The notes below the pieces were generated by a model that saw only the letters and a program-made list of their open reading frames with translations, was not told the origin of the DNA and searched no databases. Position numbers and translations under genes: made by a program. From Escherichia coli (GTDB lineage: Bacteria; Pseudomonadota; Gammaproteobacteria; Enterobacterales; Enterobacteriaceae), in assembly GCF_024223415.1 (NCBI RefSeq), contig NZ_CP100502.1: a DNA stretch of 64,000 nt. The stretch is one strand, 5' to 3'. Positions 16,508 through 21,312 of this stretch are shown here, one piece after another; within the stretch, counting starts at the first letter, position 1; each line of letters opens with the position of its first letter.

Positions 16508-17644
16508 TCAGTCAAACAGACCCAGGAGCAGCTCAGCCGGTGGCGCCCGGCTTTCGGGTAACGCCCTGGTCCCGCTGGTTTCGGCTTTGTGCTTCAGGTG
16601 ATCAAGGATCTGCTTGATCACTATAGGGTCTTCAATGCAGGCGATGACTTTCATGGCGCCGCCGCAGCCGCTGCAGGTCTCGATGTCGATATTGAAAACA
16701 CGCTTGAGCCGTTGCGCCCATGTCATCGACGCTCGCCGTTGTGCTGGTGTTGCCGGTTCATCAGCCACCCTGACCTTGTTGCCCCTGCCCCGTTTTGCCG
16801 GCGTGACCAACGCCCGGTGCCGACTGTTGGGTGCGAACACCCCGTGGAAGCGGGTTAGGTTGACTCTGGGCTTCGGTACCAGGGCGGCCAGCCTTGCAAT
16901 GAAATCCAATGGTTCGAAAATGACGTGCGTGGTGCCGTCCCGGTACGGCGTCTTGAGCTGGTAGCGCACGTTGCCGCCTCGTGTTAACGACAGCCGCTTC
17001 TCGGATACCGCCGGGCGGCTGATGTACCGGCACAGCCGTTCGAGCTTCTTGCGTTCATCGGCCCTGGCCGCCACGCCGGCGTGCAGGCTGGACCCGGCTA
17101 CCTTGCCAATCCCGTCACCGAACGGATCACCACTGGTCGGCAGAGTTTGCAAAGTGAACACCTTTCGCCCCGCCTGTGAACCGACAGCGATACGGTAAGT
17201 GATCGAGTGCCCCAGCAGGGGTGTCATCGGGTCGTCATCCACCGCATCCGAGGCCAGATAGCTGTTTTCGACATCCCGTTCCAGCAGGCCTTGCCGTTCC
17301 AGATAGCGACCCACCCGGTGGGCGATGGTGTGCGTCAGCTGGGTGAGCTCTGGGGTGGTCGGCGCCTTGACCCAGCGGAAACGCGCTGAGCCGTGGGATT
17401 GCTCGACATACACACCGTCGAGAAACAGCATGTGGAAGTGAACATTCAGATTGAGCGCCGATCCAAAACGCTGGATCAGGGTGACCGCGCCCGTCTTGGC
17501 CACTTGGTGGGTATGGCCCGCTTTCTTGACCAGGTGCGTGGCAATGACGCGGTAAACGATGCCCAGCACCCACCCCATGATCTCGGGCCGGCTGGCAAAC
17601 AGGAAACGCAGCTGAAACGGGAAGCTCAACACCCACTGACGCAT
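16508..17644 (-). CDS. IS91-family ISCR2-like transposase, probably lacking the N-terminal zinc-binding region
   Basis: 378-aa ORF with HFH (HUH) and YxxxY motifs and ISCR-type C-terminus IDIETCSGCGGAMKVIACIEDPIVIKQILDHL; adjacent to sul2 and truncated glmM. Confidence 0.7.
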   Translation of the reverse strand: MRQWVLSFPFQLRFLFASRPEIMGWVLGIVYRVIATHLVKKAGHTHQVAKTGAVTLIQRFGSALNLNVHFHMLFLDGVYVEQSHGSARFRWVKAPTTPELTQLTHTIAHRVGRYLERQGLLERDVENSYLASDAVDDDPMTPLLGHSITYRIAVGSQAGRKVFTLQTLPTSGDPFGDGIGKVAGSSLHAGVAARADERKKLERLCRYISRPAVSEKRLSLTRGGNVRYQLKTPYRDGTTHVIFEPLDFIARLAALVPKPRVNLTRFHGVFAPNSRHRALVTPAKRGRGNKVRVADEPATPAQRRASMTWAQRLKRVFNIDIETCSGCGGAMKVIACIEDPIVIKQILDHLKHKAETSGTRALPESRAPPAELLLGLFD

Positions 17645-18010: not shown

Positions 18011-18280
18011 ATGGCACAGGTTAATATGAGTTTAAGAATCGACGCTGAACTGAAGGATGCTTTTATGGCCGCTGCAAAAAGCATGGACCGTAATGGCTCT
18101 CAGTTAATTCGGGATTTTATGCGCCAGACCGTTGAACGGCAGCATAATACCTGGTTCCGTGACCAGGTTGAGGCAGGACGTCAGCAACTCGAGCGCGGCG
18201 ATGTGCTTCCCCATGACATGGTCGAATCTTCCGCTGCTGCATGGCGGGATGAAATGAGCAGGAAGGTTGCCGGTAAATGA
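18011..18280 (+). CDS. Antitoxin, ParD/RelB-like (YacA-like of IncI plasmids)
   Basis: 89-aa ORF with ribbon-helix-helix-like N-terminus; 4-nt overlap with downstream toxin gene. Confidence 0.7.
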   Translation: MAQVNMSLRIDAELKDAFMAAAKSMDRNGSQLIRDFMRQTVERQHNTWFRDQVEAGRQQLERGDVLPHDMVESSAAAWRDEMSRKVAGK

Positions 18281-18558
18281 TGGAGATATTCTGGACCATG
18301 CTGGCCAGCCAGGACAGGAAGCGCATTCGTAAGTACATTGCGGAGCAGAACCTGATGGCCGCCATTGAACTGGACGAACGGATTGGTTATTCAGCCAGCA
18401 GCCTGGCCGGGCAGCCGTATAAAGGCCGCAACGGTCGTGTGGAAGGTACCCGGGAACTGGTTATTCACCCGCATTTTGTTCTGGTTTATGAGGTCGACAG
18501 CCAGTGGGGAAAAGTGTATATCCTGCGCGTGTTGCATACTGCACAGAAGTGGCCATAG
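18277..18558 (+). CDS. Toxin, RelE/ParE superfamily (YacB-like)
   Basis: 93-aa ORF translationally coupled to the antitoxin; typical RelE/ParE size and composition. Confidence 0.7.
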   Translation: MMEIFWTMLASQDRKRIRKYIAEQNLMAAIELDERIGYSASSLAGQPYKGRNGRVEGTRELVIHPHFVLVYEVDSQWGKVYILRVLHTAQKWP

Positions 18559-18597
18559 AGGGGCTGTCCGGATATAAGGAAAGGAGATGCAATAACC

Positions 18598-19446
18598 ATG
18601 AATAATGATGAGCTGGCCACCAGACGTGCGCAGGCGATTGCCGAAGACAGGTGTTTCTCGAAAGGACGTTTGCGCGATGAATTCAGAATGAAACCAGCCC
18701 CCGGTGCTGAGCCGGTTAAGTGGTATAAAAATAGTTATGGTGGCAGGTTCGCTGTATACCGAATTGCAGACTGTGTTCCGATGCGTGAGAAACGCCCTCT
18801 GACGAGTAAACAACAGCTGGCTGGCCAGCGGCTTTCCGTTTTATCCCGACTAAACAGCACCAGTGGCCGGATGGCACGGCAGGCATATGACTGGCTGAGT
18901 CTGGCACCACTCTTTCTGGATACTGAAACGACAGGACTGGATAATACCGCGGAAGCCCTGGAAATCGGCCTGACCGATGCGGCCGGTCAGGTGGTATTTG
19001 AAACCAGGCTGAAGCCCACGGTCGCCATCGGGGCGCAGGCCGCCGCCGTGCATGGTATCAGTGAGCAGGCTCTCTGCGGCGCACCATCATGGACAGATGT
19101 GGCGCGGCAACTGCGTCATGCAATCGGGGACCGACCAGTAATTATCTTTAATGCCCGGTTCGACATCCGCATTCTGAAACAGACTGCTGCCGCACATAGC
19201 GATCCGGCTGACTGGCTGGAAGAACTGACGGTATATTGTGCGATGGAGCTGGCTGCAGGATATTATGGGGCCACCAACCGCTATGGCACGATTTCACTGG
19301 CCTGTGCTGCCAGTCAGGCCGGACTGACCTGGGAAGGGCAGGCACACTCAGCGATCGCCGACGCACGGATGACGGCAGGGGTGGTAAACGCTATTGCTGC
19401 ATATCATCTGGAACTGCTGCAGGAACAGGCACGGCTGAAAATCTGA
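18598..19446 (+). CDS. DEDD-family 3'-5' exonuclease (DnaQ-like) with N-terminal extension
   Basis: Exo I motif FLDTETTGL; 282 aa; strong SD AAGGAGA. Confidence 0.75.
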   Translation: MNNDELATRRAQAIAEDRCFSKGRLRDEFRMKPAPGAEPVKWYKNSYGGRFAVYRIADCVPMREKRPLTSKQQLAGQRLSVLSRLNSTSGRMARQAYDWLSLAPLFLDTETTGLDNTAEALEIGLTDAAGQVVFETRLKPTVAIGAQAAAVHGISEQALCGAPSWTDVARQLRHAIGDRPVIIFNARFDIRILKQTAAAHSDPADWLEELTVYCAMELAAGYYGATNRYGTISLACAASQAGLTWEGQAHSAIADARMTAGVVNAIAAYHLELLQEQARLKI

Positions 19447-19517
19447 CCGCCTGGCCTGTATACCGCAATCATTTACGTTATCCAGACGTAAATCCGCCGC
19501 TTGTTGCTGTCAGCATG

Positions 19518-19549
19518 TTAATGCTAATGTATGTGTACATTAGCATTAA
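19518..19549. repeat. 32-bp perfect palindrome TTAATGCTAATGTAT-GTG-TACATTAGCATTAA (copy 1)
   Basis: Read directly; near-identical copy at 20069-20108. Confidence 0.8.
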
Positions 19550-19562
19550 TGAGGGATGATAT

Positions 19563-20036
19563 GTGAGAGACAAAACCAGGGAGGCCATGCGGCTTTTTTT
19601 AGGCGGCAGGTGCTACACGGCTGAAAAACTTGAAAAGGATTATCTGGCTGAAGTGGCTAATTACAGTAACGACCGCTGGGAAGCACCGCAACGTGCCTCA
19701 CGCCTGGCTGCCAGCGTAAAGCGTTACAAGACATCAGAAATGCTGCGCTTTATTTTTGCTACCATTGCCTACGATCCCGATCCAGATTTAACCCCGCTAA
19801 CTGTGAGACGTTTGTGCAAGGCATTGTTCGGCAGAACCGGAAGCCAGTGGCTGGTTGTTGAAGTTTTTGGGGAGAAGGGGCGTCAGCACCGCAGCGCGGA
19901 CAGCAATCCGGAGATGGTGGAAAAAATGGCTGCCAGATATCGTCATGCCGCCGAACTACACTGGTCCGCAACGCTGGCAGAAATTGAACGGGTAAAGCGG
20001 CTTTATCAGACGAAAATTAAGAAATCCAAAAAATAA
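19563..20036 (+). CDS. Hypothetical protein bracketed by two copies of a long palindrome
   Basis: 157-aa ORF (GTG, or ATG at 19587); no recognisable domain. Confidence 0.5.
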   Translation: MRDKTREAMRLFLGGRCYTAEKLEKDYLAEVANYSNDRWEAPQRASRLAASVKRYKTSEMLRFIFATIAYDPDPDLTPLTVRRLCKALFGRTGSQWLVVEVFGEKGRQHRSADSNPEMVEKMAARYRHAAELHWSATLAEIERVKRLYQTKIKKSKK

Positions 20037-20068
20037 GTGGGTTGACTGCCATTGTTGTTCTTCTCCTT

Positions 20069-20108
20069 CATCATTAATGTTAATGTATGCATACATTAGC
20101 ATTAATGA
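20069..20108. repeat. Near-perfect palindrome (copy 2) downstream of the 19563-20036 ORF
   Basis: TCATTAATGTTAATGTATGCATACATTAGCATTAATGATG. Confidence 0.8.
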
Positions 20109-20170
20109 TGGTGCGTTAAAGTATCACTGGTATAATCTGGTAAAGAACATATTGAGAATGAGAACTTATC

Positions 20171-20404
20171 ATGTCGTCACGCAACTCTGTACATGATTTT
20201 ATAATGCTGCTCCCGGCGCTGCTGTTGGTTGGGTGGTTAGTTTTGGTGATAATTCTCATGTTTAGGGATGATAAATGTGACAAAACTTACCGTGAAGGTT
20301 CGTTTCCCGAATTTATTTGTCTCCATTCTGATCGCTCGTCACTTCGAGAAACCGATTCTGAGAGACTCATTGTCAAATATACAGAAATAAAATCACAAAA
20401 ATAG
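20171..20404 (+). CDS. Small predicted membrane protein (uncertain)
   Basis: 77-aa ORF with hydrophobic N-terminal helix; AT-rich; weak SD. Confidence 0.3.
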   Translation: MSSRNSVHDFIMLLPALLLVGWLVLVIILMFRDDKCDKTYREGSFPEFICLHSDRSSLRETDSERLIVKYTEIKSQK

Positions 20405-20778
20405 GTAAAACCAATAATACTATAGCTAAAAAATAGTTACTTTTCTGTATCACCCTGTCTCTCTCTGCTTTTTCATGGCTACTGTCATATTTATGTCTGT
20501 TGCGCGGTTTTGTTACTTTTTCATGACCGAACCCGAAATTTTGCGCGTCAATAAGAGACGTTGTGTAAACTCAGTCCTTTTATCTGGCAGGTTAACCCCT
20601 ATCAATCTTAGGATGAAACCACGCCATCCTCTGTTTGCCTGGTTATTAATTTCATAAAGACGATTGTTTTCCTCTCGTAGTTTTGTCCACTCTAAACAAA
20701 GTGTTATATCATCCAGTTCTGTGATGTGTTTCACTTTTCCATTGACAGTTACAGTGTTTATTCCATTTCCTGTGAGCA

Positions 20779-21312
20779 TCATCTTATGCCTTTTTTATCT
20801 TCATTTGGGACCGTGCTTTTCTTCGGAGTATCACTATTCGTTAACTGCTGTTTATCAATAAAATTCCTGATGTTATCAAGTGCTTCCTTTGTTTTTAGAA
20901 TGCGCTTGATATCCATTTCATCCCGCCCGGTCATTCTTTTTCCGGACAAAAGACGCTCAAGAAGCTCCTGTTTCGCATCAGGAGAATCTTTGGCGAGATC
21001 CATCAGGTTAAGCAAATCTTCACGATCGAGAGGAAAGAAGTATTTTACAAAATACTTGAAAAGCGAAAGAAAGTAGTATGCTGTCCATGCAATACAGAAA
21101 CCGATTCTGAGAAACTCATTGTCAACTATACAGAAATACAGGTATACAATCAGGAGAATAGGTAAAATCCATAATACTATAGCTAAAAAAATATATACGG
21201 GGATCAGGCGTCTGTATGCCCGTTCATGTTTATTCAGGATGAATAAAATCTTCTCCGCTTCTGAATCACACATAACATTCTCTTCCCATTTTTTCTGATA
21301 CGTAATGTCCAC
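20779..21312 (-). CDS. Predicted two-helix membrane protein
   Basis: 177-aa AT-rich ORF; hydrophobic stretch LIPVYIFLAIVLWILPILLIVYLYFCIV; contains one copy of a roughly 90-bp direct repeat. Confidence 0.5.
   Translation of the reverse strand: MDITYQKKWEENVMCDSEAEKILFILNKHERAYRRLIPVYIFLAIVLWILPILLIVYLYFCIVDNEFLRIGFCIAWTAYYFLSLFKYFVKYFFPLDREDLLNLMDLAKDSPDAKQELLERLLSGKRMTGRDEMDIKRILKTKEALDNIRNFIDKQQLTNSDTPKKSTVPNEDKKGIR

Follow-up and report, generated by a model that had tools for sequence, protein, structure and literature searches.

The yadA gene and its two bracketing palindromes: a candidate self-contained module of Enterobacterales plasmids

Background

Among described systems, the REP/RAYT units (REPtrons) and IS200/IS605 share with the locus reported here a small gene placed between copies of a palindrome of ~30–40 bp; extra solo copies occur in intergenic regions and the palindrome sequence varies with the protein clade. 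Autoregulated genes that adjoin the sites of their own product include tus with TerB, rtp of Bacillus subtilis with IRI/IRII, and the par2 locus of pB171 with parC1 and parC2 around parAB. These resemble the present locus in that the gene lies beside or between the sites of its own product, with one site at the 5' control region. The Acinetobacter pdif (XerC/D) modules, integron cassettes and lox/FRT systems are similar in another respect, as short dyad sites delimit a unit found in many backbones and both solo and occupied states are seen at one locus.

A homologue described in the literature is PSLT047, a 162-aa product encoded between tlpA and mig-5 on pSLT, the virulence plasmid of Salmonella (Gonzalo-Asensio et al. 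2013, PMC3815029). Circular RACE identified a primary PSLT047 transcript, for which the longest clone was 740 nt. An antisense RNA of 597 nt, IesR-1, starts beside the mig-5 promoter and overlaps the PSLT047 3'UTR, and its 3' end was predicted by the authors to form a stem-loop. Interruption of IesR-1 led to an increase in the level of the PSLT047 protein. The protein was reported as confined to some Salmonella serovars and palindromes were not mentioned (PMC3815029). PSLT047 is the only member of its family with experimental data, and a search of the literature for the exact dyad sequence and for yadA with IncI1 returned nothing relevant besides this paper.

Results and discussion

The dyad pair of the IncI1 plasmid

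The window, which is the whole stretch of 64,000 nucleotides analysed, belongs to an IncI1 plasmid, and the stretch carrying the module is 100% identical to ColIb-P9. The preliminary description placed two long palindromes on either side of a 157-aa ORF at 19563–20036, and both copies are present at those places. They had been called perfect palindromes of 32–40 bp, which holds for the presence of the dyads and for the arms of the left copy only, and the four central bases of that copy are asymmetric. The left dyad (19518–19549, 32 bp) reads TTAATGCTAATGTA TGTG TACATTAGCATTAA and consists of two perfect 14-nt arms around the non-symmetric centre TGTG. It abuts a Shine-Dalgarno-like GAGGGA read from the sequence at 19551–19556 on the + strand, between the dyad and the GTG start codon at 19563, and the distance from the end of the dyad to this codon is 13 nt. 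The right dyad extends over 20069–20110 and contains a 32-bp core at 20074–20105, TTAATGTTAATGTA TGCA TACATTAGCATTAA, in which TGCA is the centre and the arms fail to match at a single place (a T at position 7 faces a G). The symmetry of this copy reaches outward locally to 21+21 nt (CATCATTAATG...CATTAATGATG). The stop codon of the ORF ends at 20036, 32 nt from the extended right dyad and 37 nt from its core. Neither dyad is assigned a strand.

Read as direct repeats, the left and right copies are 89% identical over 38 nt, and each 14-nt arm includes just three G or C bases (counted by eye). A pattern search for the form TTAATGCTAATGTA-N4-TACATTAGCATTAA allowing up to 3 mismatches returned only these two sites, at 19518–19549 and 20074–20105, from the 64 kb window, with 0.00 expected from 100 shuffles, and the 14-nt half-site is present four times in the window against 0.2 expected. 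The unit of dyad, gene and dyad spans 19518–20105 (588 bp, + strand), and in alignments of homologous modules the similarity starts and stops exactly at these limits. The two palindromes and the enclosed gene would appear to be one self-contained, plasmid-specific module.

Sub-threshold matches to the Rfam entry 'mir-155' were recorded on both strands at 19515–19552. The first 11 nt of the dyad equal the start of miR-155, presumably a resemblance by chance. The dyads match no Rfam family, so a known RNA family was rejected as their identity and the sub-threshold miRNA matches are considered spurious.

The module has the same neighbours as in ColIb-P9, where the order is the yacA/yacB toxin-antitoxin pair, the exonuclease gene yacC and then yadA. 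The region upstream of the module in the window (18011–19446) encodes yacA, yacB (ParE-family toxin, PF05016) and yacC, a 282-aa DnaQ/RNase T-like 3'-5' exonuclease, and yacC is carried along with the yadA module as one block, at 97–98% identity, in IncF plasmids. Further upstream, a 378-aa ORF on the − strand (16508–17644) is found at the place of the ColIb-P9 repA region as judged by coordinate offset, so the window departs from ColIb-P9 upstream of yacA. Downstream, an extended -10 motif (TGGTATAAT, 20128–20136) is located 23 nt past the right dyad and precedes a 77-aa ORF (20171–20404). It is attributed to this neighbouring gene and not to the module because a dyad-free IncK2/Z plasmid (L034) with a different upstream region keeps the stretch. 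A direct repeat of ~95 nt is present at 20347–20433 and 21096–21190, with an overall identity of 85% that rises to 95% in the first 43 nt. The first copy covers the end of the 77-aa ORF on its 3' side, and the second is inside a 177-aa ORF on the opposite strand.

The yadA gene product

The ORF at 19563–20036 (+ strand) is annotated as a hypothetical protein in ColIb-P9 and carries the name YadA in some databases. The RefSeq form is shorter and starts at the ATG at 19587; judged from the sequence, the GTG at 19563 is the likelier start since the N-terminal residues encoded from it are conserved in homologues. The 157-aa product belongs to the PSLT047 family and exhibits 52% identity to the pSD_77/pSLT protein (E=1e-55, full-length homology). 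PSLT047 is therefore a true homologue, and its gene on pSLT is surrounded by the same two dyads. The two loci differ in that IesR-1 lies in a spacer specific to pSLT, and no counterpart is found beside the module of the window. The YadA family comprises 125 representatives at 50% clustering, fragments counted.

No Pfam, NCBIfam or PHROG family was matched by YadA, and no PDB relative was identified either by profile search against PDB sequences or by fold comparison. The AF2 model, which was built on a 42-sequence alignment (pLDDT 92, pTM 0.89), predicts an all-helical protein of six helices, the last of which is 41 residues long. The family is mostly basic, with a pI of 9.3–9.9 in five of the seven homologues and two that are not basic. 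Five residues are near-invariant (K53, K56, R91, Q95 and R107). A recognisable DNA-binding domain was detected neither by sequence nor by fold, and an AF2 model of a tandem fusion did not give a confident dimer (pTM 0.47). In 6 of the 42 members, residues 58–104 gave weak sub-threshold matches (best E=0.003) to DUF3646, which represents the C-terminal part of DNA polymerase III tau/gamma, and these are probably noise; the gene that adjoins yadA in IncI1 encodes the DnaQ-like exonuclease.

The family also lacks an invariant catalytic Tyr, Ser or His and an invariant His-x-His. An identity as an HUH transposase or RAYT was rejected on these grounds together with the absence of a Y1_Tnp match and the all-helical model, and it is here that the module departs from the REP/RAYT units, as YadA is not an HUH/Y1 protein. 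The layout resembles that of a REPtron in that yadA is flanked by dyads; dispersed solo copies exist, and they are few per replicon. The dyads number one to three per plasmid instead of hundreds, they are essentially plasmid-borne and the orientation of the copies is not fixed.

Distribution and conservation of the module

Of 72,556 plasmid records, 2,571 or more contain the dyad and 3,632 (~5%) contain a member of the YadA family. The dyad-bearing records come from Escherichia, Klebsiella, Salmonella, Enterobacter and other genera. Across 5,426 complete E. coli genomes, 4,004 dyad places were located on plasmids as opposed to 58 on chromosomes, and a search of phage records for YadA gave no matches. 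This plasmid specificity argues against a host-regulon operator, which is considered unlikely given that chromosomal E. coli copies are so scarce.

The same dyad brackets all seven yadA homologues compared, which range from 44 to 100% identity and come from a variety of replicon types. The six used for comparison with the window (44–83% protein identity) originate from a Salmonella IncFII/X1 plasmid, Klebsiella IncFIB and IncFII plasmids, an IncX1 plasmid, an IncHI1A plasmid and a Photobacterium plasmid. When the seven modules are aligned, similarity is confined to the interval bounded by the two dyads, with unrelated sequence on either side. Scanning a single genome for each species yielded 13 stretches, eight of which have yadA adjoining a dyad, six of them with dyads on both sides, and in a metagenome scan covering at least 120 loci, 149 of 190 dyads abut yadA. 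The preliminary description proposed a search of other plasmids for variability of the intervening gene. The gene is not variable: that between the dyads belongs to the yadA family in each of the 77 two-sided modules examined.

Conservation and geometry were evaluated on 61 unique modules of 536–589 bp. The left dyad ends 12–15 nt before the start codon in 50 of these, and a purine-rich Shine-Dalgarno sequence lies between dyad and start in other modules as it does in the window. The right dyad begins 8–29 nt past the stop codon in most of the 61, or overlaps the stop. Arm positions 6–14 and 19–27 are mostly 95–99% conserved (lowest 90%) among modules with proteins down to ~45% identity, the outer five positions are looser, and the most variable positions are 15 and 18 in the centre. 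Changes in the arms are one-sided in 90 cases and compensated in 11. The relative orientation of the two asymmetric centres is inconsistent between modules, and a strand bias of G:T versus A:C mismatches is dominated by a few lineages, which makes it not interpretable.

Some loci have more elaborate layouts. The metagenomic locus L111 (1242–2081) carries a full yadA module and, immediately after it, a second gene of yadA type (44% identity) that is truncated and reads in the opposite direction, with the dyad between them common to both. A third dyad 72–123 bp from one of the flanking copies creates a one-sided short array in L062 (2582–3224), L135, L029, L031, L158 and L161.

Ten family members at 25–35% identity were inspected for their own repeats. 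Dyad repeats are found on both sides of the gene in seven, upstream only in one and downstream only in one (on an 812-bp contig), and one is ambiguous. Drifted or different dyads occupy the same places in L029, L031, L032, L033, L158 and L161, all at 25–35% identity. Examples are TTAAGGCTAAnGTAtgcaTTCrTTAGCTTTA in L161, AAATGCTAACCTAtcgaTTCATTAGCATT in L158, AAAGTAAACGTAtgcgTACGTTTACTTT in L160 and CTAATGGAtataTCCATTAG in L032, and in L030 the gene is flanked on either side by a dyad of unrelated sequence, GCGTGAGTnACTCACGC. The variants in L029, L033 and L157 have the same change in both arms, so that the symmetry is kept. Drift of the site that tracks the divergence of the protein is what a protein paired with a cognate site should show, and concerted evolution of the two repeats could contribute to it.

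Dyads as candidate YadA-binding sites

The reading that is tentatively preferred, at somewhat less than even chances, is that the dyads are cognate YadA-binding sites that would autoregulate and insulate yadA and would act as crossover points incidentally. Protein-binding sites were one of the options in the preliminary description and are the best supported of them, on the basis of strict symmetry, conserved arms, a free centre, linkage to one protein family and drift of the site in distant homologues. Conserved half-sites on either side of a free centre in a dyad-symmetric site are also what is expected of the operator of a dimeric repressor, and they are found here.

Under this proposal YadA would bind the dyads, probably as a symmetric oligomer. 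The left site abuts the ribosome-binding site, and because just 12–15 nt separate it from the start codon it must overlap either the promoter or the 5' leader. Binding of YadA at this site would result in autoregulation. The right site, directly past the stop codon, may close the unit as a second operator or as a roadblock, and once transcribed its hairpin may mark or stabilise the 3' ends of transcripts. The 32-bp sequence would be a crossover point since plasmids with little else in common have almost the same version of it. An exchange between the left and right copies would delete yadA and leave a solo dyad, and recombination between plasmids would produce mosaic junctions at the dyad.

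The sequence TGcTAATGT in each arm reads as an extended -10-like motif, and no promoter in or beside the dyad passed a standard scan. Evidence from pSLT counts in favour of the binding-site reading, as PSLT047 has a primary transcript of its own and the level of the protein is controlled via the 3' region (PMC3815029). The helical protein with its near-invariant residues and mostly high pI, and the lack of a canonical terminator, also count for it. Counting against it are the missing DNA-binding domain, the low-confidence dimer model, the two homologues that are not basic, the negative promoter scan and an IncX4 plasmid that has a solo dyad but no yadA. The symmetric variants and the stability of the hairpins fit a structure in single-stranded nucleic acid equally well. 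The likeness to tus/TerB, rtp and par2 is limited in the same way, for the binding of YadA is putative, its fold is not a recognisable DNA-binding fold, and it has no ParA partner and no known role in replication or partition.

Solo dyads and mosaic junctions

Dyads that are not part of a complete module fall into ~19 flank clusters, several of which are truncated modules or contig ends. One solo copy is at the locus of the window itself: an IncK2/Z plasmid has the left (yacC) and right flanks of the window at 92% identity with one chimeric dyad between them and without yadA. The left arm of this dyad is that of the left copy, and the centre and flank are those of the right copy. An IncF solo dyad and the IncX1 module have homologous right flanks, and in one plasmid a high-identity match to the window begins exactly at the left dyad. 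The complete IncX4 plasmid NZ_CP062215 contains one dyad and yadA is nowhere on the plasmid, so some dyads are without a cognate protein in cis. This solo dyad is situated downstream of a HigBA-like toxin-antitoxin operon and upstream of a GC-rich element of 280 bp.

The 280-bp element (L004, 2217–2497, NZ_CP062215) has internal inverted repeats and precedes a J-domain gene, at a distance of 20 bp from the solo dyad. The element has matches in 1,776 plasmids, often several per plasmid, and is absent from the window. As a guess, it may be a leading-region single-strand promoter or an ssi-type element.

The dyads do mark recombination junctions. A second explanation, judged unlikely, is that the module is a mobile cassette. 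The dyads would then be site-specific recombination sites, and a circle of yadA and one dyad would enter and leave solo dyads elsewhere, with YadA or another recombinase as the catalyst and a logic like that of lox, pdif, an attC cassette or a REP/RAYT unit. Inverted repeats of 13–14 bp with a spacer resemble lox/FRT and resolvase crossover sites. A discrete unit with unrelated flanks in every replicon type suits such a cassette, as do the IncK2/Z locus, the clusters of solo dyads, the shared IncF and IncX1 flank and the match that starts at the left dyad. Against it, YadA is an all-helical protein that bears no signature of a recombinase, a transposase or an HUH enzyme and lacks an invariant Tyr, Ser or His for catalysis, nothing but yadA was found between close dyad pairs, and the asymmetric centres have no consistent relative orientation. 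A dyad-free site with intact flanks was also not found around the IncI1, IncX1 and pSLT modules, where the only case was the IncK2 solo. Ordinary recombination or slippage at a shared conserved 32-bp island would suffice for such junctions and needs no dedicated enzyme, and deep divergence by itself accounts for similarity that ends at the dyads.

The proposal of the preliminary description that recombination sites flank a cassette is thus borne out as far as the discrete unit, the solo copies and the mosaic junctions are concerned, and it falls short on the cargo. As yadA is invariant between the dyads, the module is not a carrier of assorted genes in the manner of an integron or pdif module. 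It differs from these systems and from lox further in the absence of an Xer-like site, an attC core and a linked recombinase. A Xer dif/cer/pdif site was rejected because the window contains no sequence within 3 mismatches of GGTGCGYAYAA-N6-TTATGKTAAAT, and an integron attC cassette was rejected because of the invariant cargo, with no GTTRRRY cores seen in the dyad and no adjoining integrase.

A related idea, also improbable, is that YadA and the dyads represent a previously unrecognised plasmid element. YadA could be a protein of new fold that, on recognising the dyad or its hairpin, would transfer or copy its own dyad-flanked gene from one plasmid to another, as a REPtron counterpart without an HUH enzyme. 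It could instead act in trans on co-resident solo dyads, in which case those beside toxin-antitoxin operons and leading-region elements would provide for cross-talk between plasmids.

Hairpins and terminators

The dyads might function without YadA as hairpins in RNA or single-stranded DNA that stabilise, process or end the yadA transcript and insulate it from its neighbours in a REP-like manner, an explanation regarded as doubtful. Folding of the RNA, a check put forward in the preliminary description, gave stable hairpins with energies of −17 to −25 kcal/mol and z-scores of −3 to −6.8, and these have fixed places at either end of the cistron, one 5' and one 3'. The two-arm changes by which the variants in L029, L033 and L157 stay perfect dyads agree with a structural role, and several solo copies are positioned just downstream of toxin-antitoxin operons and other genes. 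On pSLT, most PSLT047 clones end before the overlap with IesR-1, and the RACE data suggest that transcripts often end near the right copy (PMC3815029). The 3' end of IesR-1 with its predicted stem-loop would fall at about the right dyad, because the RNA is 597 nt and the spacer is 654 bp. These points are offset by several others: a hairpin role does not need ~97% identity of the site across proteins that are 45% identical, the one-sided arm changes far outnumber the compensated ones, a U-tract is absent, some pSLT transcripts read through (the longest clone compares with an ORF of 489 nt; PMC3815029), and the constant bracketing of one gene family is left unexplained.

Bidirectional hairpin terminators in the canonical sense, another option of the preliminary description, are not supported. 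The stems are AT-rich, the sequences after the dyads are TGAGGG and TGATGG with no T-run, a terminator scan of 19300–20400 returned no terminator-like site on either strand, and a hairpin alone would not fix the sequence; a canonical Rho-independent terminator was ruled out. The outcome named in the preliminary description as a refutation, that the palindrome would prove to be a common terminator unrelated to gene content, was not borne out: the dyad is tied to yadA and is no generic terminator.

Least probable is that the dyads are sites of another plasmid regulator or recombinase or of a host protein, with yadA as its most constant target. In favour of this are a dyad that stays the same among plasmids with YadA proteins only half alike, the solo dyad (functional if at all) on a plasmid without yadA, and the presence, in several contexts, of a serine recombinase gene no more than a few kb away. 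Against it, E. coli chromosomal copies are almost nil, no second gene is consistently linked across the contexts examined and the dyad sequence shifts where YadA is distant.

Conclusions

Thousands of plasmids of enterobacteria carry this module of 590 bases, of which there seems to be no earlier description. Its carriers include major resistance and virulence backbones, namely IncI1, IncF, IncX1, IncHI1, the Klebsiella IncFIB/FII plasmids and Salmonella pSLT, and yet yadA is annotated merely as hypothetical despite its presence in about a twentieth of catalogued plasmids. If YadA binds the dyads, its fold would be new among DNA-binding proteins, and the plasmid backbone would have a conserved function in regulation or maintenance. 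If the dyads recombine, they would help to account for the mosaic junctions between unrelated plasmid types. Either way, the 32-bp sequence is a sharp and easily searched marker of Enterobacterales plasmid DNA.
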